Below, in pieces: positions 2,275 through 49,079 of a stretch of 64,000 nt of DNA. The notes below the pieces were generated by a model. The model saw nothing but the letters and a program-made list of their open reading frames with translations, had not been told where the DNA came from and made no database searches. Each line of letters begins with the position of its first letter. Position 1 is the stretch's first letter. The DNA is taken from contig DATLOE010000006.1 in the NCBI GenBank assembly GCA_035536395.1, positions 6,899-70,898 on the forward strand, in the 5' to 3' direction. Source of the DNA: Candidatus Dormiibacterota bacterium. GTDB taxonomy: Bacteria; Patescibacteriota; Saccharimonadia; UBA4664; DATLOE01. A program made the translations under genes and the position numbers.

Positions 2275-3066
2275 ATGCAAATTCTAGAAGCGCTCTTACT
2301 TGGCATCATCCAGGGATTCACAGAATTCATACCGGTATCCAGCTCCGCACACTTACTGATTTTCGGCAAATGGTTAAACTTCGAAGCCAGCACACTGTCT
2401 TTCGACCTTGCCCTGCATATCGGCACACTAGTAGCGCTTTTCTTGTTTTTCCGCGGTGATCTGTACGATCTTGGCATAGGGCTAGTTAAGAAAACCGAGC
2501 ACAGCCGTATGAGCTGGATGATTGTACTTGCCACCATACCGGCAGTAATTGGCGGGGTGCTTTTGCAGTCATATGCCCAGGGCCTATTTAGGTCAGATGC
2601 CTTTACAGTGGTTGTGGCCACTAATTTAATTACTGTAGCTGTAATTATGCTGGCGGCCGAGCGTTTGGGCGCAAAGAAGTATGAGCTAAAAGACACCACC
2701 ATTCCTAAAATCTTAGCGGTTGGTCTGGCGCAAGTACTGGCATTGGTACCGGGGGTGTCGCGCTCGGGCATTACCATAAGCGCGGGGCTGCTAGCCGGCT
2801 TTAACCACGTGGCGGCTACTAGACTGTCTTTCTTGCTTTCGTTTCCGGTTATTTTAGGGGCAGTACTCAAGGTGGTGTTTGAACCAAGCGGACTTACTGA
2901 TATGGCAGCTGCACCTGCGCTGTACATAGCCGGAGCCGTAGGCGCCGCCGTGAGCGGTTACGCGGCTATTAAATTTATGCTAAAGTACCTTGCCACACGT
3001 GGGCTGGGCCTCTTCGCGTATTATCGGATAGCACTTGGAATAATAATTTTACTGGTTGGAGTGTAA
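2275..3066 (+). CDS. uppP: Undecaprenyl-diphosphatase
   Basis: 263 aa. N-terminal ...GFTEFIPVSSSAHL... and the VSRSGITISAGL motif are diagnostic of UppP/BacA. Confidence 0.85.
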   Translation: MQILEALLLGIIQGFTEFIPVSSSAHLLIFGKWLNFEASTLSFDLALHIGTLVALFLFFRGDLYDLGIGLVKKTEHSRMSWMIVLATIPAVIGGVLLQSYAQGLFRSDAFTVVVATNLITVAVIMLAAERLGAKKYELKDTTIPKILAVGLAQVLALVPGVSRSGITISAGLLAGFNHVAATRLSFLLSFPVILGAVLKVVFEPSGLTDMAAAPALYIAGAVGAAVSGYAAIKFMLKYLATRGLGLFAYYRIALGIIILLVGV

Positions 3067-20865: not shown

Positions 20866-22074
20866 TTATGCCTTATGAAGTACAGGTGATTCCGGCTCAG
20901 TGTCTTGGTAAAACATCAGCCCTAGCTTTATCTGCAATGCATCATCAAATACACGGGGATCGAGGCCTATAACCTTCTTAGTTTTATCAAGCCGGTATAT
21001 TAATGTATTGCGGTGGACATGCAGAAGCCCGGCAGCTTCGGTTAGGTTCAGCCCCGAGGTCAGGAAGGTTCTAACGGTTTTATAGAGCTGCTCATCTTTT
21101 AAGAGGGGGTATAAAATCTGGTGCGCTAACTCGGCCTTGCGCTCCTGGGTTACATTAGCCAGGGTAACGAACATCCCTACGCTCTTAATATGGTAAACCG
21201 TATCATTACCCCAAACCTTAGTGCCGACGTGAAGAGAGAGCTTGGCCTCTTGGTAGCTCTTACGTAAGCCCCCCAGATCGGGGTAGTACTGTCCCACTCC
21301 TAGCGATACGGTTTTGTCAGGATACTGTTTTTTCAGAATCCCATATACATACTCAGCCTTTTCGATTAAGAAACGCATAGTATTGCGAATGGTTAATCCT
21401 TCCCCTCCAATACCCTTTGAGAGCACAAAGGTATCACCACCCAAGTAGCAGCAGATATTTCCGGGATGGTTATTGAATGCTCCTAAAACAGTTTGGGTGA
21501 TATCATCGGCAGCCTGGGCGATTTTAAGCTCCTGTTCATCTGCCGAAATGCTTCCAAGCTGGCTGCGAATACCCTCCTGAAAGCCGTTAATTTCAATCAA
21601 AATAATGGCTTGCGGCATACGCAGGTTAAGCTGTAAAACGTCAGCTTGGCGGTAGGTTTCTGTATGACTGCCGCGTGCTGTGGTTAGTACTTGCTTAAAG
21701 AATTTGGCCCGCACGGTGGCCGATGGCTGGATATGCCTCATAAGGAAGTATTGGTGAGTAATGACTTCGGCCAGCCCCTGCAGCAGACTGATAGCTTCGG
21801 GCGTAATCGGCCCTTCATTTCCTTCTATAATTCCAAAAGCACCGACTGTCTGCCCATCATACACAAAAGGACACCAGGCAATTTGGCTTTCACCTAAAAA
21901 GGAGCGGACGATCTTGCCTTCCTGGCATGACCTAAGCGCGTCAACCATAATCTGGCCGGTGTAATCTTGGCTGGCCTGTACCAAGCCTTGAGCATCGGCT
22001 ACCAGTACCGTTCGATCCAAGATGCCTTTGGCTCTTTCTAATATCTGATCTGCTAGAGGTTGCCCGATTCTCAT
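20866..22074 (-). CDS. CdaR/PucR-family transcriptional regulator
   Basis: C-terminal HVHRNTLIYRLDKTKKVIGLDPRVFDDALQIKLGL is a PucR-type HTH. The middle region is a GGDEF-like domain as in CdaR. Confidence 0.7.
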   Translation of the reverse strand: MRIGQPLADQILERAKGILDRTVLVADAQGLVQASQDYTGQIMVDALRSCQEGKIVRSFLGESQIAWCPFVYDGQTVGAFGIIEGNEGPITPEAISLLQGLAEVITHQYFLMRHIQPSATVRAKFFKQVLTTARGSHTETYRQADVLQLNLRMPQAIILIEINGFQEGIRSQLGSISADEQELKIAQAADDITQTVLGAFNNHPGNICCYLGGDTFVLSKGIGGEGLTIRNTMRFLIEKAEYVYGILKKQYPDKTVSLGVGQYYPDLGGLRKSYQEAKLSLHVGTKVWGNDTVYHIKSVGMFVTLANVTQERKAELAHQILYPLLKDEQLYKTVRTFLTSGLNLTEAAGLLHVHRNTLIYRLDKTKKVIGLDPRVFDDALQIKLGLMFYQDTEPESPVLHKA

Positions 22075-23207
22075 TTCTGGCCTACGAATTTATTAAACAG
22101 AATCGCTAGCTTAATTTGTACAGCGTCCTCAAAGCTGCGAGGATCCAGGCCAAGCGTTTCAGCAATGCGATCTAGCCGGTACACCAAAGTGTTGCGGTGA
22201 ATGTTTAGCTCGCCAGCGGTCTGGGTGAGACCCATATTGTTTTTAAAGAAAGTCTCAAGTGTTTCTATTACACCGCCGTTCTGGCCTAATTTTTCTAGCA
22301 GTTCACGGCTGAAGTAAATATTACTTTCGTCTATACCTGACAGCAGAGGGGCGACTACCCCAAAGTCGTCAATGTGGTAAACCCGATCTTTATCCCAATT
22401 CTGCGCCCCTAGCTCAATGGCTGAGACTGCTTCCTGGTAGCTGGTGCGTAGGCCGGAAACGCCTGGGTGATAATTGCCAACCCCGACAGTAGCTGTGACT
22501 TTGAGCTCCGATTTCAGAATGCCATAGATGGTATTAATCGATTTTTTAAACTTCTCTAGGTTTTCGCCCAGATCACTATCAGTGCTGTCTATATCTTTTA
22601 AAATACAGAATACATTCTGCCCCAAGTAGGCAATGACATTCCTTCGAGTAGAAGTATAGTAGGAGTTTAGGGCTCGGTTGATGTTGAATTTATAACGCGA
22701 AATTCTTAGCTCACGGTCACCTTCGTCCCTGGTCTCGCCGGTTAGTATGGGGTCGTCTATATAAATGGTAATGGCAATCCGCGGGCCGGTAAGCTCTATG
22801 TCGAATAGCCTAGCTTCGGCTATTAGCATACGGTCGCCATCGCTTTCGGAATTGAGTAAGTCGTATACGAATTTATCGAGCCGTTCTTCTTGCTGGGGGA
22901 GCTGCTCAATTAAGGCTGATTGGTGCACTATCAGTTCAGCGATCGAGCGAATGAGAGGGGCGATTTCTTCTTGGTTAGGCATCTGAGAGGCTAGTACTAC
23001 GTAGCCAGCTACATCACTGTTGTAGAGAATGTCGATTGCATGAGGGTGCTTTTCTACTTCTACGCTTTCCTCTACCAGGGGATCATTACTAGCCAGCACA
23101 GCACCCTCTGGGCTTACAACCGATATCGGCTGGTTGACTAAGCCCGCAACCTTGCCCTGAATCTTTTCTGCTATATGGTGATTAAGCACCATTGGCGTTC
23201 CCCTCAT
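22071..23207 (-). CDS. CdaR/PucR-family transcriptional regulator, a paralog of the downstream gene
   Basis: C-terminal NIHRNTLVYRLDRIAETLGLDPRSFEDAVQIKLAILF. Same architecture as the neighbour. Start and stop overlap as ATGA. Confidence 0.7.
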   Translation of the reverse strand: MRGTPMVLNHHIAEKIQGKVAGLVNQPISVVSPEGAVLASNDPLVEESVEVEKHPHAIDILYNSDVAGYVVLASQMPNQEEIAPLIRSIAELIVHQSALIEQLPQQEERLDKFVYDLLNSESDGDRMLIAEARLFDIELTGPRIAITIYIDDPILTGETRDEGDRELRISRYKFNINRALNSYYTSTRRNVIAYLGQNVFCILKDIDSTDSDLGENLEKFKKSINTIYGILKSELKVTATVGVGNYHPGVSGLRTSYQEAVSAIELGAQNWDKDRVYHIDDFGVVAPLLSGIDESNIYFSRELLEKLGQNGGVIETLETFFKNNMGLTQTAGELNIHRNTLVYRLDRIAETLGLDPRSFEDAVQIKLAILFNKFVGQK

Positions 23208-23289
23208 TTTTTAGAAGACTGTACAAATAGATTACTTTGGCGCGGGGCAGAGAGGCAAGCGTAAGGGGATTGGTTTTTGGAGGATTGAA

Positions 23290-23332
23290 TAAAAATTAAA
23301 AGCCGGGCGTCCGTTAAGACACCCGGCTATTG
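23290..23332 (-). terminator. Rho-independent terminator for the gam-like gene
   Basis: The reverse complement gccgggtgtcttaacggacgcccggc is followed by a T-run. Confidence 0.55.
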
Positions 23333-23866
23333 CTAACCGCTTTTACCGGTGGCTGGAGTGTCGGCCTTGACCTCCACTGGATCTATATAAAAGCGTTCCT
23401 TGGGCGGGTTAAACACCACGCCATCGACTTTCTTGGCAAAGTCAGGCTCTTTAAGGAGTTCCGCTTTTTTAAGGCTGAAACTGGTCTTAATGAAGTCCTT
23501 AGCTCTTTTGAGCTTGCGGATGCTGGCTATGGCTTTTTTATCATCAGTGCCTTCCAGGCTGGCCTTACCATGCTTCCAACTCAGTTTACCCGTTGGCAGG
23601 CTGATGGTTTTACCTTCTGCTAGCATCGATCGGTTGGCTACCGCGAATGTTTCCAGGCTGGCCTCTAACTGCTCACGCTCTTCTTGCAAAGCGCTGATCT
23701 GGCTCAATGCCTTGAACTGCAGCGTCTCAATTTCATCATTCAGCTTAATTCCGATCGATGAAATTTCCCGGCTGACTTCACCGTAGCGGGCGAGTTCTTC
23801 GCAAGCCTTGTCTATCTGCTCCTTGCTGGCTGTTTTACTTTCAATACCCTTGGTTGCCCTGGGCAT
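23333..23866 (-). CDS. gam: Mu Gam-like host-nuclease inhibitor, a Ku-like DNA-end-binding protein
   Basis: The ~175-aa coiled-coil protein aligns with phage Mu Gam. Ours FAVANRSMLAEGKTISLPTGKLSWKHGKASL matches Mu WCEANRDELTNGGKVKTANLVTGDVSWRVRPPSV. Ours RKLKRAKDFIKTSFSLKKAELLKEP matches Mu LERLGLQRFIRTKQEINKEAILLEP. Confidence 0.7.
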   Translation of the reverse strand: MPRATKGIESKTASKEQIDKACEELARYGEVSREISSIGIKLNDEIETLQFKALSQISALQEEREQLEASLETFAVANRSMLAEGKTISLPTGKLSWKHGKASLEGTDDKKAIASIRKLKRAKDFIKTSFSLKKAELLKEPDFAKKVDGVVFNPPKERFYIDPVEVKADTPATGKSG

Positions 23867-42356: not shown

Positions 42357-43853
42357 TCAGAGTTTTGGCCGATACTGCAAAGCTTCAGCCAGGTGGCAGG
42401 TTTGTATATTCTGGCTTCCTGACAGATCGGCTATGGTTCGGGCTACCCTTAAAACTCTCATATACGACCTAGCTGATAAATTCAGACTGGAGAGCGCTTG
42501 GCGTTCCAGGCGGCGGCCTTCTTCATCCAGTTGGCAGTGGGTCTTAATTTGAGCATTATCCATACCTGCGTTGATGTTGGCAGATTTTAGGCGCTTGGCT
42601 TGAATGAGCCTGGCAGTATGTACTCGTTCGGCTACAGACTTGCTTGGTTCGGCGGTTGCTTTAGCAATCATACTTTCTTGTTCGACCGGCGCCACATCTA
42701 CGAATAGATCGACCCTGTCTAGTAGCGGGCCGGAGACCTTCTTGCTGTATCGTGCTACTTGTGCCGGGCTACAGACACATTCCCGCTTAGCATCGCCAGC
42801 ATAGCCGCAGGGGCAGGGGTTCTGGGTGGCTACCAACATAAATCGGGCCGGATAGGTGATAGAACCAGAAGCTCTAGCAATACTTACCACACCGTCTTCT
42901 AAGGGCTGGCGCAGCACCTCCAGTACATGGCGGGGGAATTCCGGCAGCTCGTCGAGGAAGAGTACTCCCCGGTGGCTCAGACTGATCTCGCCTGGCTTAG
43001 GCCAAGTGCCGCCGCCAATCAGAGCTACATCGCTGGCCGTGTGGTGAGGGTTTCGGAAAGGCCTTTGATAGCCCGCCTCAGCCGACAGACCGGCTAGGCT
43101 ATATAACTCAGCGATTTCGATTGTTTCTTCTAAGCTTGGTGCAGGTAGGAGCCCGGCCAAGGCTCTGGCTAGCAAGGTCTTGCCGGTGCCGGGAGGGCCG
43201 GAGAGCAGAATATTATGGCCGCCCGCCGCCGCTACTTCAATAGCTCGCTTGGCTTGGTTCTGGCCGTAAATATCTTGCATATCGACAGCCGGTTTAGCCT
43301 GAGCTTTAACCTTCCTAGCAGAGCCGGAATAGGGCTTTACTGCCTCTTCTTTCGCCAAGTGCCGGTACAGCTGCCGCAAGGACTTAAGGGGGTAGAGGGT
43401 TAACCCTTCCACTAAAGAAGCCTCCTGAATGTTAGCTTCGGGTACGAATATCTCAGATATACCGCTGATTTTGGCTAGCCGTACTGCCGAGAGTACGCCC
43501 TTGGTGGAGCGCACCGAACCATCCAGTGCCAGCTCTCCTGTAAAGAGATAATCGTTTGGGTCTATACTGAGCTGTTCGCTGGCTGTGAGTATAGCAACAG
43601 CAATACTCAGGTCATAAGCCGTGCCGTCTTTAGGCAGGTCGGCCGGAGCAAGATTAAGGGTAATGCGCTTGGGGGGCAGAAATAGGCCACTGTTCTTAAT
43701 AGCGCTGCGTACGCGATCTTTGGCTTCGGCTACGGCTTTATCTCCTAGACCTACTACCGTAAAGGAGGGGAGGCCGCTGGCCAGATCGCACTCCACATCG
43801 ATGAGTTGTCCTTTTACACCTATACAGGTTGGGGCGAGCACTTTAGCTGGCAT
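42357..43853 (-). CDS. YifB/ComM-family Mg-chelatase-like AAA+ ATPase
   Basis: Lon-like N-domain, Walker A GPPGTGKT, and a C-terminal Mg_chelatase_C region. A GGAGA RBS precedes the MPAKVLAP start. Confidence 0.8.
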   Translation of the reverse strand: MPAKVLAPTCIGVKGQLIDVECDLASGLPSFTVVGLGDKAVAEAKDRVRSAIKNSGLFLPPKRITLNLAPADLPKDGTAYDLSIAVAILTASEQLSIDPNDYLFTGELALDGSVRSTKGVLSAVRLAKISGISEIFVPEANIQEASLVEGLTLYPLKSLRQLYRHLAKEEAVKPYSGSARKVKAQAKPAVDMQDIYGQNQAKRAIEVAAAGGHNILLSGPPGTGKTLLARALAGLLPAPSLEETIEIAELYSLAGLSAEAGYQRPFRNPHHTASDVALIGGGTWPKPGEISLSHRGVLFLDELPEFPRHVLEVLRQPLEDGVVSIARASGSITYPARFMLVATQNPCPCGYAGDAKRECVCSPAQVARYSKKVSGPLLDRVDLFVDVAPVEQESMIAKATAEPSKSVAERVHTARLIQAKRLKSANINAGMDNAQIKTHCQLDEEGRRLERQALSSLNLSARSYMRVLRVARTIADLSGSQNIQTCHLAEALQYRPKL

Positions 43854-43980
43854 TTTATTTCTCCGCCGCCCGTTAATTAGTAATAAAACGATGTTAGCGA
43901 ACAAAAAGCGAACTGTCAAATGTCTTATGTTGTCAATGCTTATTTACAAATGCTACAAATCAGCGTACAATCTATAAGCT

Positions 43981-44781
43981 ATGAATGAAGAACTGGTAAA
44001 ACAAGTAGAAGATCTCGGCCTGAGCAACAAGGAAGCCCGGGTTTATCTAGCCAACCTAATGCTTGGCCCTTCTGGCGTGCAGCAGATAGCAGAAGCCGCA
44101 GGTATAAAGCGGGTTACTACCTACGTTATACTCGAATCTTTAGTCGGCCTGGGGCTGGTCAGCCAGACTACCCATGCCAAAAAAACTTTATTTAATGCGG
44201 AAGACCCTCAACATCTCAGCCGTCTACTGGAGAAGAGGGAGGAAGCGCTTAAGGAGCAGAAGCAGAACCTTAGCGAATTGCTGCCAGATATAAAGAAGCT
44301 TAAATCGCTTTCTAAAGATGTTCCAGCAGTAAAATTTTATGAAGGTGCAGAGAGTATGATGACTATTTATAAGTCTTTGCCTCTCGTTTTTAAAAAATAC
44401 AATGTTAAGGAAAGTTTCGGTATCAGCAATTTGGATCAACTATATGCTTCCTTTCCTGAGATAAAAGATGCCCAGGCTAACCCCTCTCGTGTTGATGCCA
44501 AAGTAAAGAGCAGATTTATTTACACCACTAAAGAAGGACCAATTATTAAAGAATCAGATTCGGTCGCAATACGCGAATCAAGGTTTGTGCCTTTAGATAA
44601 ATTCCCCTTCAATTGTGACATTGGTATAGTGGGGGATTTTATCTCGGTCATGTCACTTGAAACACCACGGCCAATGGGAATTACTATTGAAAGCGCAGCT
44701 CTGGCTAAGGGGTTCAAGGCTGTGTTTGAGCTGGCCTGGGAAGGCGCTGAAAAGTATGATAAAGAAAATAAGAGTAAGTAA
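43981..44781 (+). CDS. TrmB-family transcriptional regulator
   Basis: The N-terminal wHTH LGLSNKEARVYLANLMLGPSGVQQIAEAAGIKRVTTY is typical of TrmB. TACAAT lies 9 nt upstream of the ATG. Confidence 0.6.
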   Translation: MNEELVKQVEDLGLSNKEARVYLANLMLGPSGVQQIAEAAGIKRVTTYVILESLVGLGLVSQTTHAKKTLFNAEDPQHLSRLLEKREEALKEQKQNLSELLPDIKKLKSLSKDVPAVKFYEGAESMMTIYKSLPLVFKKYNVKESFGISNLDQLYASFPEIKDAQANPSRVDAKVKSRFIYTTKEGPIIKESDSVAIRESRFVPLDKFPFNCDIGIVGDFISVMSLETPRPMGITIESAALAKGFKAVFELAWEGAEKYDKENKSK

Positions 44782-44795
44782 GTTAAAACTTGTAG

Positions 44796-44824
44796 TTGAC
44801 TTTAAGCCGTAATAGGAGTACAAT
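44796..44824 (+). promoter_or_regulatory. Consensus sigma70 promoter (-35 TTGACT, 17-nt spacer, -10 TACAAT) driving a non-coding transcript
   Basis: ttgactttaagccgtaataggagtacaat. Confidence 0.6.
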
Positions 44825-44829
44825 CGGTT

Positions 44830-45277
44830 TTGTCTCTTTGGCATCGGCCTATGGTTTATGCCAAAAGAAGTGCAGTACAAAAAGCTTCTTCGCCCCGTCG
44901 AAGAAGCCGACCAGGCAAGGAGAGTGGGATGCCATGTTCGGTCTGTAGATCGACACGCACATGGCGCCCCCGCTGAAAGCGGTTTCTTCACGGCTACCTA
45001 GCTGTAGTTCCGCTTCGGCGGGGCGTCAAAGACTTCTTCTGCCTATGCTGTCGCTTAGGAGTGACGCCCCGCGCGTCAGCTAAGGGAAGAAGACAGGGAA
45101 TCCTGAGCATGGACTGCCGGGCCAAGGATTGGCTCGAGAGTCACCTCAGGAACCCATTGCACCGAGCGGCGCCGGGGATCGGTCCCAAGGACTTTGTCCA
45201 AAAGACCGTCCCCGGCCACGCTTCTCAACTTTGAGCTTTTAGCTCTCAGTAACCTCCAGTTCTGCTGGAGGTTTTTC
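44830..45277 (+). ncRNA. Candidate structured ncRNA of unknown family, about 450 nt
   Basis: A promoter lies upstream, and the intrinsic terminator cctccagttctgctggaggttttt lies at 45253-45276. It contains GC-rich hairpins with GAAA and UUCG tetraloops (cccgctgaaagcgg, ccgcttcggcgg) but no credible ORF. Confidence 0.45.
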
Positions 45278-45331
45278 AATATAAGCTCCTTGGACCGGTT
45301 TAGTCTATCGGCTCTGGATATATCAGGGTTT

Positions 45332-46639
45332 TTACTTTTTAGGCAGGCGCGCAGGTAGTCTAAACCGTCTTTTAGGCGGTTTTTTAGCGTTAATATGGCC
45401 CTTTAGTACCGTTTCATACAGTCTGGCCAGTTGCTTGGCTTGGCGCTCGGCAGAGTACTTAGCCGCAAGCTTAATGCTGGCTTCACCCATATCCTGGCGC
45501 AGCCGATCGTTCGTCAGCACCTGGCTGAGTCTTCGGGCAAAGCTGCGCGCGTTATTACGGGAGAATAGACCATTAACCTTATCTATAACTACATTAGTGA
45601 TGTCGTGATCGATCATAACAATCGGCAATCCGGCCCAAGCCGCTTCCTGGATAACCAGGCCTTGGGTGTCGGTGGTGGAAGGGAAGGCAAAGACGGTGGC
45701 TACCTTATAGGCTGCCCCCAGCCGACTTCTTTCTATTCGGCCGGTAAATACGACGCGATCGGCTACACCCAGGTTCTTAGCCTGCCTCACCAGCTTGTCC
45801 TGCTTCTCGTGGCGGCCGATTAATACCAGCTTAGCCTTAGGGTGGCTGGGCGCAATTATAGCAAAGGCGGTAATTAACAGATCCACGCTTTTTTCATCTC
45901 CCAGCCGGCCGACGAAGAGGATTACCTGATCGCTCTCTTTTAACCCATATCTCTCACGGAACAGCTTAGCAGCCCTAGTGGTCGTAGTAATTTTGTCAAC
46001 ACCTGTCGGTAAAACCCTGATTAAAGACTTGGTTTTCCACGATCGCAGCTGCTGCTCGATTTTGATAGAGGGTACAATAACCCGATCACAATAGTTATGC
46101 AGCATAGTAATGCCTTTAACGATTATTTTCTGATTCCAGGCATCCACATTACGTTCCGGCTTTATGCTGCTTAGAGCAAATCGTAGGTCGTCCATTTTGC
46201 CCCCGGTAATTAAAGGGGAAAGCATAGAAAGGGCAATCGCGCCAGGCAAGACCTGGGGGTAGTAAGTAACGTACTCATATAAGTCTGAGTGATAGGTGGT
46301 AACAAGGGGTTTGCGGTTGTGTATGGCGTAGTAGGCTCCTAGTAGGCCGATTTGGCCAGGGGTATGGTAATGCACGATGTCAGGGTTTATCTTTTTTATC
46401 TTCAGCAGAGCCTGCGGGGGGAAGAATATACTAGTCAGATAGTCATCGAATACCAGGCCCTTGACTGCCGGAAACCTAAGGATGTTAGGGGATTTCTCCT
46501 TATAACGAAGCCCAGGAGCCGGGGCGATCACGTGAACCTCGTGGCCCAGCTTTTCCAGCTCAACCCGAAAAGTCTCTATGGAGTAAGCTACTCCATCAGC
46601 TCTGGGCAGGTATGAATCTGTGAAAAAAGCTATTTTCAT
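45332..46639 (-). CDS. GT4-family glycosyltransferase
   Basis: MKIAFFTDSYLPRADGVAYSIETF... The GT-B fold has the C-terminal E-x7-E region. Confidence 0.75.
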   Translation of the reverse strand: MKIAFFTDSYLPRADGVAYSIETFRVELEKLGHEVHVIAPAPGLRYKEKSPNILRFPAVKGLVFDDYLTSIFFPPQALLKIKKINPDIVHYHTPGQIGLLGAYYAIHNRKPLVTTYHSDLYEYVTYYPQVLPGAIALSMLSPLITGGKMDDLRFALSSIKPERNVDAWNQKIIVKGITMLHNYCDRVIVPSIKIEQQLRSWKTKSLIRVLPTGVDKITTTTRAAKLFRERYGLKESDQVILFVGRLGDEKSVDLLITAFAIIAPSHPKAKLVLIGRHEKQDKLVRQAKNLGVADRVVFTGRIERSRLGAAYKVATVFAFPSTTDTQGLVIQEAAWAGLPIVMIDHDITNVVIDKVNGLFSRNNARSFARRLSQVLTNDRLRQDMGEASIKLAAKYSAERQAKQLARLYETVLKGHINAKKPPKRRFRLPARLPKK

Positions 46640-47652
46640 TTACTAGCTATTAGTTGTCGGTATAGTCTGCATAGTTGCTTGGCTCCGCTGGCATTATCGA
46701 ACTTGGTGGCAATTGCGCGTGATAACTCAACTGCCTCCCTATAGTATACCTGGTTGTCGTGAAGGCGTTGCACTATATGCGCAAAGGTCTTGTCTGTGCC
46801 GCGAAGAATATCTTGGCCAAAGTTAGAATCGTAAGAGGGGATATCTCTAACGACAATAGGCAGGCCGGCGGCGGCGGCTTCTAGTACAGCTAATGGGTGT
46901 CCTTCCCGATTGGAGGGCATAATAAACACATCGGCAGCCCAGTAGTACTGCTTGACCTCGCTATGCTCAAGGGGGCCAATAGTACTCATATTTGCTGGCT
47001 GCTTGTGCGTAAGCTCTAGCATATCCTTATAACTGGCACTTAGGTGTTTGAACGGCGTACCGCCAATCCAAATGAATCTGAAGCCCGGAAACTGCTTTGC
47101 AAGACTCAAAAAGCTCTCATACCGCTTGGTGGGGTTAATCTGCCCGACAGACAGTACGATGAAGTCAGTGGATCCAAGCCCCAGCTTTTGCCGGGCCAGC
47201 CGCTTACCATCTTTCGCCGGTTTATATTGGGCTGTATCGACCGTATTGGGTATTACGGTAATCTTATCTGACTTTATTCCAAGCTTTCTAATCAAGCTTT
47301 GCTCTACTTCTTCCGATATCGCTATGATTTTGTCTGCGCGGTTGTAGAAAAATTTTAGGTACCAAGCCGCCAGACGATACCAGTACTTAGCTCCGGCTAC
47401 CGTTCCCACGAAAGCGTCTGGCACAACGTGGGCCGTTACGACCTTTTTGTTGCCACCCAACACGAGCGCCACTAGGCCGTACGGGCCAGTAGTGTGCACG
47501 TGCGTAATGTCAGCGGATCCCAGTTGGTTAACTCTAACCAGGACATCATTACGCTCACCCAGGGCCAGTACATGCTCTCTAAAGGCTGTATCGACCCCAT
47601 GCCCACCAATAGAAAAGGCCGATTCAGAAATAATATTTACTTTCAGTTTCAT
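46636..47652 (-). CDS. GT4-family glycosyltransferase
   Basis: 338 aa GT-B. NREGHPLAVLEAAAAGLPIV. Confidence 0.7.
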   Translation of the reverse strand: MKLKVNIISESAFSIGGHGVDTAFREHVLALGERNDVLVRVNQLGSADITHVHTTGPYGLVALVLGGNKKVVTAHVVPDAFVGTVAGAKYWYRLAAWYLKFFYNRADKIIAISEEVEQSLIRKLGIKSDKITVIPNTVDTAQYKPAKDGKRLARQKLGLGSTDFIVLSVGQINPTKRYESFLSLAKQFPGFRFIWIGGTPFKHLSASYKDMLELTHKQPANMSTIGPLEHSEVKQYYWAADVFIMPSNREGHPLAVLEAAAAGLPIVVRDIPSYDSNFGQDILRGTDKTFAHIVQRLHDNQVYYREAVELSRAIATKFDNASGAKQLCRLYRQLIASK

Positions 47653-47725
47653 ATAATAATCGCGGTTTTATAACAAGAAATTAGGCACTGGGCTATATTG
47701 TACTAAAAATTATAGTAATAAAACA

Positions 47726-47760
47726 AAAACCGGAGGCTAGCTGCCTCCGGTTGCAGTAGA
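47726..47760. terminator. Rho-independent terminator, usable in both directions
   Basis: aaaaaccggaggctagctgcctccggtt. Confidence 0.65.
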
Positions 47761-47770
47761 ACCGCACTAA

Positions 47771-47989
47771 CTACATGCGGTCTTCTTGGCCAGGTTCGGT
47801 TTCCTCTCCCTCAGTACCAGAGTGATCTAATTGCTCCCCAAAAGTTGGGTGGTTTTTTGTTTCTTCTCCAGAAAACTCTTCTTGAAGAGCGTCATTTAGC
47901 TCCGGATCCGCGTTTTGCTGGGCATCTCTTTTAATTTGTTCGCCAAACTCCATTCCCTCTGCGTCTTCACATTTCTGGTCTTGTGCCAT
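47771..47989 (-). CDS. Small highly acidic, probably disordered protein
   Basis: Perfect AAGGAGA RBS. 72 aa with about 35% Asp/Glu. Confidence 0.45.
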   Translation of the reverse strand: MAQDQKCEDAEGMEFGEQIKRDAQQNADPELNDALQEEFSGEETKNHPTFGEQLDHSGTEGEETEPGQEDRM

Positions 47990-48105
47990 ACTGTCTCCTT
48001 TTAATTACTTGGGTATTATTTTAACGGTATTACAGATAAGGGAGGTAGTTGCAGGCTCACAAAATAGCTCGCTCTCACAAGCGGATTTTTGGCAAAACTG
48101 GCACA

Positions 48106-48146
48106 AAAACACACCAGTTTGAACTGATGCGTTTTTGGTGGAGCTG
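48106..48146 (-). repeat. Distal copy of the tmRNA 3'-end direct repeat (att-like)
   Basis: aaaaacacaccagtttgaactgatgcgtttttggtggagctg versus 48594-48634. A 25-nt perfect core aactgatgcgtttttggtggagctg is shared. Confidence 0.8.
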
Positions 48147-48247
48147 AGTTAACCCGGCCTGAGATATCATAACTATTACGCCCCGCCGGTTATCCGACGA
48201 GGCGTTTGCTGGTTTGTCATATATGAGGGTCCTAGCACATCTTCACT

Positions 48248-48499
48248 TCATTTGTTCAGCAGCCATATGCCTATTCCAGCTGGCACTAAAGCAGCCGCCC
48301 ATTGGCCCATGACAACCAAAGCAACTGCTATGGCGAGGTTGCCAAGTACAATAACTCCGAAGAAGGCAACTAGTAAAAATTCAAGAGGGCCAAGCCCGGA
48401 GCCTGGTGTCGCCCGTGGGCCTTCCTGGGTGGAAAAATATGATCCATCTCCTCTTGAGGAGTCACAACCACAACTCGATTCGCAGCCATAACCATGCAT
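48248..48499 (-). CDS. Small Cys-rich membrane protein (two predicted TM helices), the only gene inside the repeat-bounded insert at tmRNA
   Basis: AGGAGTGG RBS precedes the ATG at 48499. MHGYGCESSCGCDSSRGDGSYFSTQEGPRATPGSGLGPLEFLLVAFFGVIVLGNLAIAVALVVMGQWAAALVPAGIGIWLLNK. Confidence 0.5.
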   Translation of the reverse strand: MHGYGCESSCGCDSSRGDGSYFSTQEGPRATPGSGLGPLEFLLVAFFGVIVLGNLAIAVALVVMGQWAAALVPAGIGIWLLNK

Positions 48500-48623
48500 T
48501 TCCACTCCTAATGCTCTGTTGTTAAGGTGGCAAGATGTTACCACCAACCTGATAATTGGTCAACATTCATACACTGGGGGTATTAGTGGCAACAAAAAAG
48601 CACCAGATAAACTGATGCGTTTT

Positions 48624-49011
48624 TGGTGGAGCTGCGGGGAATTGCACCCCGGTCCGAAAGCTAACAAAATGTTCTTCTACAGGCTTAGACCGCTTAGCTG
48701 GGGTAAGCCCCGCTTAGGTAACGATCTGTAAGCGGACCAAATAACCGTTACTGCAGCCTAATGTCTTAAAAGCAGCCGTTAGGCGCCAGCTGCTTAGCAG
48801 CCAGAAAATATAACACCGGCGAGCCCCCATCTGGCGTCAGGTGCCGATGGCTTACGGGTTTAAGCGTAAGCTGGTGCGAGCTGAAGACCGCTAAAAGCAG
48901 TCTTAACCCGCGAAACAATCGAGTTGACGGTTGTTTATGGGTGGATTTAACGCATTCCTGCGGCCTGCAAAACAAATTGAAAATGTACTTTCGTCGAAGC
49001 TTATCAGCCCC
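48624..49011 (-). ncRNA. ssrA: tmRNA (SsrA)
   Basis: The 5' end GGGGCTGATAAGCTTCGACG and the 3' end GGACCGGGGTGCAATTCCCCGCAGCTCCACCA closely match the E. coli tmRNA ends (GGGGCUGAUUCUGGAUUCGACGG ... GGGUUCAACUCCCGCCAGCUCCACCA). The tag reading frame was not confidently resolved. Confidence 0.8.
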
Positions 49012-49079
49012 ATAGCGAACTATATTAACAGGTTTGGGCGGTAATTTCAAGGAGTGGGGGTGCAGTATGGCTCTTATGT

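Follow-up and report, generated by a model that had tools for sequence, protein, structure and literature searches.

Genes for tmRNA (ssrA) are integration sites for the tyrosine integrases of phages and islands, for example CP4-57 in E. coli and VPI in Vibrio. The CPR bacteria (Patescibacteria) have tiny genomes in which few mobile elements are expected, and integrative elements are poorly documented in this group; we know of no conjugative elements described at their ssrA site. Here we ask how the 3' end of an ssrA gene came to be repeated 488 bp downstream of the intact gene, around a short insert with one small orphan ORF, in a 64-kb stretch of Saccharimonadia DNA (hereafter the window, meaning the whole stretch that was analysed). 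Our reading, held with moderate confidence, is that DNA integrated at the 3' end of ssrA in the Campbell manner and left the repeat as an att-type duplication; the unit would today be a remnant without an integrase, of the type known as CIME or microCIME.

An intact tmRNA gene was identified at 48624-49011, minus strand, by ARAGORN and by the Rfam model RF00023 (positions 1-374, its full length, with 98.6 bits). Its acceptor stem is GGGGCTG/CAGCTCC, its 3' end reads CAGCTCCACCA and its terminus is CCACCA; a promoter-like site, TTGAAA-17-TAATAT with TG (49022-49050, minus strand), was located by a consensus scan that is not significant alone. The last 11 nt of the gene and its native trailer, an intrinsic terminator, make up repeat copy A (48587-48634, minus strand), which reads CAGCTCCACCA followed by AAAACGCATCAGTTTATCTGGTGCTTTTTTGTTGCCA (48634-48587) and recurs in direct orientation at 48146-48099. 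This recurrence, copy B (48099-48146, minus strand), joins an orphan ssrA 3' fragment, again CAGCTCCACCA, to a trailer-type terminator hairpin. The duplication is plain in its anatomy: without gaps the copies match over 48 nt at 77% identity with a spacing of 488 (direct-repeat search), and with gaps 43 of 49 columns match (z 18). They share a perfect core of 25 nt, CAGCTCCACCAAAAACGCATCAGTT, at 48610-48634 in copy A and 48122-48146 in copy B (both minus strand). The core sequence AACTGATGCGTTTTTGGTGGAGCTG occurs exactly twice in the 64-kb window, against 0.00 times expected in shuffles, and the 11-mer CAGCTCCACCA is confined within the window to the two copies.

The position of the core given in the initial annotation agrees with the repeat search and with the gene ends from ARAGORN and Rfam, and the 463 bp reported there is correct as the distance from core to core (48147-48609); the full 48-nt copies enclose 440 bp (48147-48586), which we call the insert. 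Of the 48 nt in each copy, 11 come from ssrA proper and 37 from the trailer with its terminator. The copies show no difference in 25 columns and then six in 24 (with two 1-nt gaps), and because all six differences sit distally (hypergeometric p ~0.01, our own arithmetic), the repeat has a mosaic make-up, one block being perfect and the other arm diverged. A Logan contig from an independent assembly (L012; SRR8544467) is 100% identical over 42871-48660, both copies included, so the two-copy arrangement is not the artefact of one assembler.

Most of what is repeated has the form of a terminator. Copy A folds into a hairpin with the stem GCATCAG/CTGGTGC and a T-run (-15.7 kcal/mol, z -4.3); copy B folds more stably (-20.6 kcal/mol), with the z of both at about -4.2, and its T-run is broken by a G. 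Each copy thus ends a transcription unit with a GC-containing hairpin and a T-run, as intrinsic terminators do, and the differences between them preserve or improve pairing (after the C-to-T change a G·U pair is still formed, and the T-to-G change closes a C×T mismatch). Copy B is directly followed by a second terminator-like hairpin (48067-48082, minus strand), and these two consecutive terminators would insulate the next gene, ORF72, from upstream transcription. Both copies resemble the rho-independent terminator of a stable-RNA gene in that the hairpin and T-run directly follow CCA, but such a terminator cannot account for the 11 duplicated nucleotides that are internal to the gene. The possibility, allowed for in the initial annotation, that the repeat is a conserved terminator element therefore applies to the 37 of 48 nt that are trailer and leaves unexplained a second copy that carries CAGCTCCACCA and stands away from any tmRNA.

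An exact search of JGI metagenomes with the 25-mer returned eight loci, each of them a tmRNA 3' end with the same hairpin and T-run in single copy; seven of the eight were confirmed as tmRNA by Rfam, and the remaining one (L016) is cut by a contig end. When aligned with the window (MAFFT), their tmRNA bodies are 44-47% identical, against 86-92% for the last 11 nt with the 40-nt trailer, a comparison that is biased because the loci were chosen by an exact 25-mer. The closest tmRNA bodies are those of three other loci, L021 (73%), L023 (68%) and L002 (59%), in which the 5' arms of the trailer hairpin vary and the 3' arm, (C)TGGTGCTTTTTTG, is the same. Because the trailer is conserved across loci, copy A is the native intrinsic terminator of Saccharimonadia ssrA, conserved throughout the class; this identity of the repeated unit is new here.

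The trailer hairpin and T-run (48587-48623 in the window, 2479-2520 in L002, and in L013-L023) are more strongly conserved than large parts of the tmRNA itself. Hardly any variation is seen in the 3' arm, CTGGTGCTTTTTTG, whose TGGTG could pair with the CACCA that ends the mature RNA; besides terminating transcription, the trailer may thus have a part in 3' processing. That elements had spread the trailer horizontally was considered when the trailer matched distant clades better than near ones; the idea was dropped, since the loci had been chosen by the 25-mer and the near relatives differ at few stem positions and conserve the 3' arm.

The insert holds, all on the minus strand, a promoter-like site 24 nt after copy A (TTGACC-17-TAACAT with TG upstream; 48535-48563), a Shine-Dalgarno (SD) motif AGGAG (48505-48509) 5 nt before an ATG, and the orphan ORF83 of 83 aa (48248-48499; ATG at 48499, stop at 48250-48248). 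Past the stop lies a 12-bp GC-rich hairpin without a T-run, ACGCCTCGTCGG ATAA CCGGCGGGGCGT (48178-48205; fold of 48092-48240). Just outside copy B follows ORF72 (47771-47989, minus strand), which encodes an acidic orphan protein of 72 aa and has an AGGAG SD motif of its own; it is possibly part of the same lineage-specific islet as the insert. The initial annotation had described the bracketed segment as a single gene without an integrase, and ORF83 is indeed its only ORF, with no recombinase beside it. The length of 83 aa, the ribosome-binding site, the N-terminal CxxxCxC (C6-x3-C10-x-C12) and the Gly/Ser-rich stretch that follows (a disordered Gly/Ser/Pro-rich region) also stand; for the hydrophobic C-terminal half, AlphaFold2 predicts one long helix at residues 38-82 (pLDDT 80-96) in place of two clearly distinct transmembrane helices.

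No homolog of ORF83 other than itself was found in 5.8 billion clusters (word-indexed search) or 1.84 billion representatives (full phmmer search), and so none in att-bounded islands, where the initial annotation had proposed to look for them. ORF83 has no family match in Pfam, PHROGs, NCBIfam or PADLOC and, in these four libraries, no homology to small membrane toxin or holin families, with which it shares only the predicted hydrophobic helix at 38-82. The search with ORF72 likewise returned ORF72 alone, and exact-protein look-ups for window proteins including ORF83 and ORF72 gave the same sequence only. ORF83 was recorded from Logan gene calls and is not among the NCBI proteins of the same contig, whose pipeline apparently did not call it; ORF72 is among them (VNA68_01560). 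Its per-codon log-likelihood is 0.00, against 0.24 ± 0.07 for in-frame host chunks, none of which scores lower, and its other frames score similarly to the reading frame. An AGGAG placed as in ORF83 is found at 1.9% of the ATGs in the window, and any SD-like motif at 6 of 35 confident host genes; the GC content of the insert is host-like and not anomalous. New here are the lack of homologs of both ORFs and a codon usage of ORF83 unlike that of host genes. With its atypical codon score and a strong SD motif where most host genes have none, ORF83 looks foreign. The AGGAG at its ideal spacing, the promoter-like site, the terminator and the confidently predicted helix speak for a gene, and the missing homologs and families, the codon score and the missing NCBI call speak against one; ORF83 is thus a foreign or young gene, or else no gene.

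The AGGAG sites of ORF83 and ORF72 stand out against host genes that mostly lack an SD motif. Many genes of the window have a TAnAAT-like box 5-9 nt before the ATG (starts at 2275, 6226, 29435, 34667, 43981, 50049 and, on the minus strand, 55117), and these boxes together with the scarcity of SD motifs suggest widespread leaderless transcripts.

From the repeat and the insert we infer an integration event, its direction and its age as follows. Incoming circular DNA would have carried its own Saccharimonadia ssrA 3' end and terminator, and would have recombined with the resident ssrA 3' end by a crossover inside the 25-nt identical block, through a site-specific recombinase or through RecA acting on short homology. 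The outcome would be an intact ssrA with one trailer (copy A), the other trailer and the last 11 nt of ssrA being displaced 488 bp downstream (copy B), and what is left between them would be a 440-bp integrase-less remnant with a promoter, an SD-led orphan ORF and a hairpin. The empty site in this model would read CCCCGCAGCTCCACCAAAAACGCATCAGTTCAAACTGGTGTGTTTTTGTGCCAG, with the distal arm of copy B directly after the ssrA body, and the circle junction would be GGCCGGGTTAACTCAGCTCCACCAAAAACGCATCAGTTTATCTGGTGCTTTTTTGTTGCCACTAATACC. An intact ssrA with a 3' fragment in the same orientation downstream is the classical topology of integration into tRNA and tmRNA genes. The mosaic repeat agrees with a crossover block lying between arms that differ in origin, and a stable hairpin with a T-run in both copies is expected if each was once a working ssrA terminator. 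Because the target is conserved across divergent Saccharimonadia, the ssrA end with its trailer is a plausible shared attB. The foreign look of ORF83, the position of the two orphan ORFs in a variable ssrA flank and a diverged duplication of the ssrA end in a second lineage, L027, also count in favour of integration.

Traces of a mobile element were searched for in the window and in several collections. No recombinase was found in the insert, the flanking genes or 10 further unassigned window ORFs tested, and hence neither the partner tyrosine integrase envisaged in the initial annotation nor the element-encoded tyrosine or serine recombinase of an ssrA island; no adjacent integrated element was seen beside the insert among the window ORFs, and no integrase downstream of ssrA in 10 related loci. 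IMG/VR contained no match to the 25-mer core and none to a gapped trailer pattern, and the eight JGI metagenome matches, all ordinary single-copy ssrA ends, included no attP-like or second-site copy of the core. The 551-bp region had no blastn match in phage and plasmid collections, the interior of the insert had none in the window or the related loci compared, and no homology to a parent ICE or IME (DNA, protein or att) was detected in IMG/VR, JGI, phages, plasmids or protein collections.

Three weak resemblances were discarded on the way. A tmRNA or tRNA relic inside the insert dissolved into terminator-like noise in the E-value mode of Rfam, the alignment of an ssrA 3' domain relic upstream of copy B was not significant, and a faint T-arm resemblance (GGCCGGG to GGACCGGGG) was rejected as unsupported.

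Several observations count against integration: there is no recombinase and no attP-like copy in the sets searched, the GC content is normal, and the interior of the insert has no matches. Only 11 nt of the gene are duplicated, most of the repeat being a terminator whose function could be the reason for its retention; ORF83 is missing from the NCBI annotation and may be no gene. The reading as an integration at ssrA, which the initial annotation had put forward, is therefore upheld in its topology and weakened by a repeat that is mostly terminator, by the missing recombinase and by the missing attP-like copy.

In classical integration into tmRNA genes the incoming element rebuilds the end of ssrA, and its far boundary can be told by a 3' fragment of the gene, as seen here; the integrase then normally lies beside ssrA and the elements measure at least several kb, whereas the insert has neither the one nor the other. 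Williams' 'sublocation' scheme is said to class the integration points in tRNA and tmRNA genes, and an identity block from the 3' acceptor strand would match its 3'-end sublocation.

The ssrA genomic islands of Dehalococcoides, in which 20-bp ssrA direct repeats bound the inserted DNA (McMurdie et al. 2011; PMC3146451), are similar in their intact, single-copy ssrA and in the direct repeats of its 3' end downstream around inserted DNA. For some of them, which have no integration module, either mobilization in cis or fixation was proposed (PMC3146451). These islands are kilobases long and many have a serine recombinase module (DsiB), whereas the insert here has 0.44 kb and no recombinase known; their insertion point is in the T-loop and their repeat inside the gene, whereas the repeat here comprises the acceptor 3' strand and 37 nt of terminator. 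Two marks of an ssrA island are present all the same, an intact ssrA at one boundary and a direct repeat of its 3' end (11 nt of gene and 37 nt of trailer). Streptococcal CIMEs of 1.2-13 kb carry cargo, and gene-less microCIMEs measure 130-220 bp (Lao et al. 2020; PMC7563491). They are decayed elements that have kept att-type repeat flanks and lost the genes for recombination and transfer, and the insert shares both traits, with repeat flanks of att type and none of these genes inside. In size the 440-bp, one-ORF insert falls between the two, and a duplicate with a spacer of ~100 bp in a related locus, L027, is of microCIME size. CIMEs are recognised because their att sites and remnants are homologous to known ICE/IME families, usually in tandem with one; here no parent element is known, the target is ssrA and the host is a CPR bacterium. 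The unit thus resembles an island or CIME topologically, and we do not class it as a confirmed one because the searches gave neither a recombinase nor homology to a parent element.

Integron-type structures were rejected. A gene cassette, whose ORF has no promoter and is paired with attC, does not agree with the promoter-like site that belongs to ORF83 or with a repeat that is the ssrA terminator, nor a cassette array with a repeat present in no more than two copies and with the absence of intI among the ORFs tested.

The neighbourhood of ssrA was compared in relatives. The neighbouring CDF transporter has its best matches in Saccharimonadia and Patescibacteria MAGs at 63-66% identity, without ssrA synteny (GTDB scan), and the non-self matches of the GT338 glycosyltransferase beside ORF72 are at most 50% identical. 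Public data thus contain no relative beyond 50-66% protein identity and none near enough to display an empty site, which is also new here. Four distant relatives (L002, L021, L023 and L027) keep the block GT338-GT435-TrmB-ComM-DUF4446-bactofilin-DAGK, and in all four ssrA is found no more than a few kb from GT338. What differs in each of them is how ssrA is oriented and which genes stand between it and GT338, the intervening genes being an MFS transporter, an epimerase, PIN and RHH genes, and an HTH/Gp49-like pair; in the window the interval has 970 bp and contains the two orphan ORFs, ORF83 and ORF72. Because orientation and intervening genes differ from relative to relative, variation in this otherwise syntenic region is concentrated at the ssrA flank, and because the orientation relative to the GT338 block differs in every one, the flank appears to be a hot spot of rearrangement and insertion. 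Toxin-antitoxin-like genes adjoin ssrA in relatives (PIN and RHH/HicB-like; HTH with a Gp49-like toxin; L021 21-2303, L002 2537-3757).

Such a variable flank is also compatible with a local, non-mobile origin, in which the surroundings of ssrA were rearranged in this lineage. The 48-nt ssrA end with its trailer would have been doubled at the terminator hairpin, by slippage or some other illegitimate event, and copy B retained because it now terminates a lineage-specific, possibly de novo, small gene or a promoter-driven transcript. The differing orientation and neighbours of ssrA in L002, L021, L023 and L027, the host-like GC content of the insert, the position of copy B as a good terminator right after ORF83, the lack of a recombinase among the ORFs tested and the lack of any element trace in IMG/VR all speak for this account. 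We nevertheless consider it rather unlikely. No known local mechanism gives a 48-nt duplication around 440 bp of unrelated DNA, the 11 ssrA nucleotides of copy B have no role in termination and yet are perfectly conserved, and the sharp mosaic of 25/25 followed by 18/24 suits recombination better than uniform decay. Had the unit arisen by tandem duplication, the insert should resemble the next 440 bp. A diverged tandem copy was sought and rejected: the comparison scored 18, against 19 ± 2 for shuffles, and since the insert is unlike the 440 bp after copy B, tandem duplication is ruled out.

An integration that left a decayed scar, the reading we prefer, is set against activity at the other extreme: the unit could be a minimal cassette of ~0.49 kb (att copy, promoter and ORF83) that an unlinked recombinase still excises and integrates in trans and that carries a toxin, an exclusion protein or a membrane peptide. 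Its 25-nt core is perfectly identical, suggesting a recent event or maintained sites, its predicted expression signals are complete (promoter-like site, AGGAG and terminator), and its target is conserved across the class. A spreading cassette should recur, however, and ORF83 has no homolog among 1.84 billion representatives and 5.8 billion clusters; nor did IMG/VR, the JGI metagenomes or the loci compared contain another copy of the insert or a free junction. With no recombinase identified and codon statistics that cannot tell the ORF83 frame from the other frames, we regard current activity as improbable. The previously undescribed minimal cargo unit that the initial annotation had offered as one reading is likewise without positive evidence, ORF83 having no homologs. 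A decayed scar, that is, a CIME-like remnant, is the economical reading of the insert, and the unit is most likely immobile now.

The wider proposal of a whole class of ~0.5-kb cassettes that target ssrA in Saccharimonadia is quite improbable. Such cassettes would be composed of the conserved ssrA end with its terminator (serving as both att and terminator), a promoter and one SD-led gene for a small membrane protein, and would owe their movement in trans either to a recombinase encoded elsewhere or to natural DNA uptake followed by Campbell integration through RecA. If the proposal were true, the conservation of the ssrA trailer throughout the class would partly reflect its shared use as a landing pad.

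It is scarcely credible that the arrangement is an assembly artefact, with strains collapsed or joined at the conserved ssrA end, even though the ssrA 3' end and trailer are common to co-occurring Saccharimonadia and the Logan contig ends inside ssrA at 48660, since two assemblies agree base for base over both copies, the flanks of copy B are unique sequence, and the path through the repeat is unambiguous because a 25-nt exact repeat is shorter than the Logan k-mer (k=31).

When each locus was scanned with its own ssrA end and trailer, one further duplication was found, in L027. A diverged direct copy of the ssrA end lies there at 2725-2777 (minus strand), 143-195 nt downstream of ssrA (z 11), and spans half of the T-loop, ATTCCCGC, the acceptor strand (GCATCTCCACTA) and the trailer hairpin; its stem has compensatory changes and folds with -21.6 kcal/mol (z -6.7). 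Because L027 has such a copy too, short-range duplication of the ssrA end has arisen more than once in the class. The same locus contains a tRNA-Glu(TTC)-like gene (2589-2664, minus strand), 256 nt downstream of ssrA and 60 nt past the duplicate. It shares with the tmRNA the acceptor stem, GGGGCTG/CAGCTCC (G3·U70), and the ACCA, and over its 3' 37 nt it matches the ssrA end at 78% identity.

If the att scar at ssrA in the window is confirmed, the universal landing pad in tmRNA genes is also used in Saccharimonadia, and the scar marks an entry point of lineage-specific orphan genes. The conserved ssrA trailer provides a ready-made probe for surveying such integration events, and the unit would rank as an unusually small carrier of cargo if it were mobile without a recombinase of its own. 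At present the locus is a tidy instance of a known scar phenomenon, plus an orphan gene.

Two observations concern the window as a whole. Proteins identical to P0002 and P0038 of the window (46636-47989) are found in NCBI on a 75.7-kb contig labelled 'Candidatus Dormibacteraeota bacterium'; the relatives in sequence and the tmRNA type are all of Saccharimonadia or Patescibacteria, against that label, and judging from these affinities the NCBI contig is probably a mis-binned or mislabelled MAG contig. At 20866-23866 (minus strand), two tandem PucR-type regulators (Diacid_rec, GGDEF_2, HTH_30) lie beside a Mu Gam-like protein.
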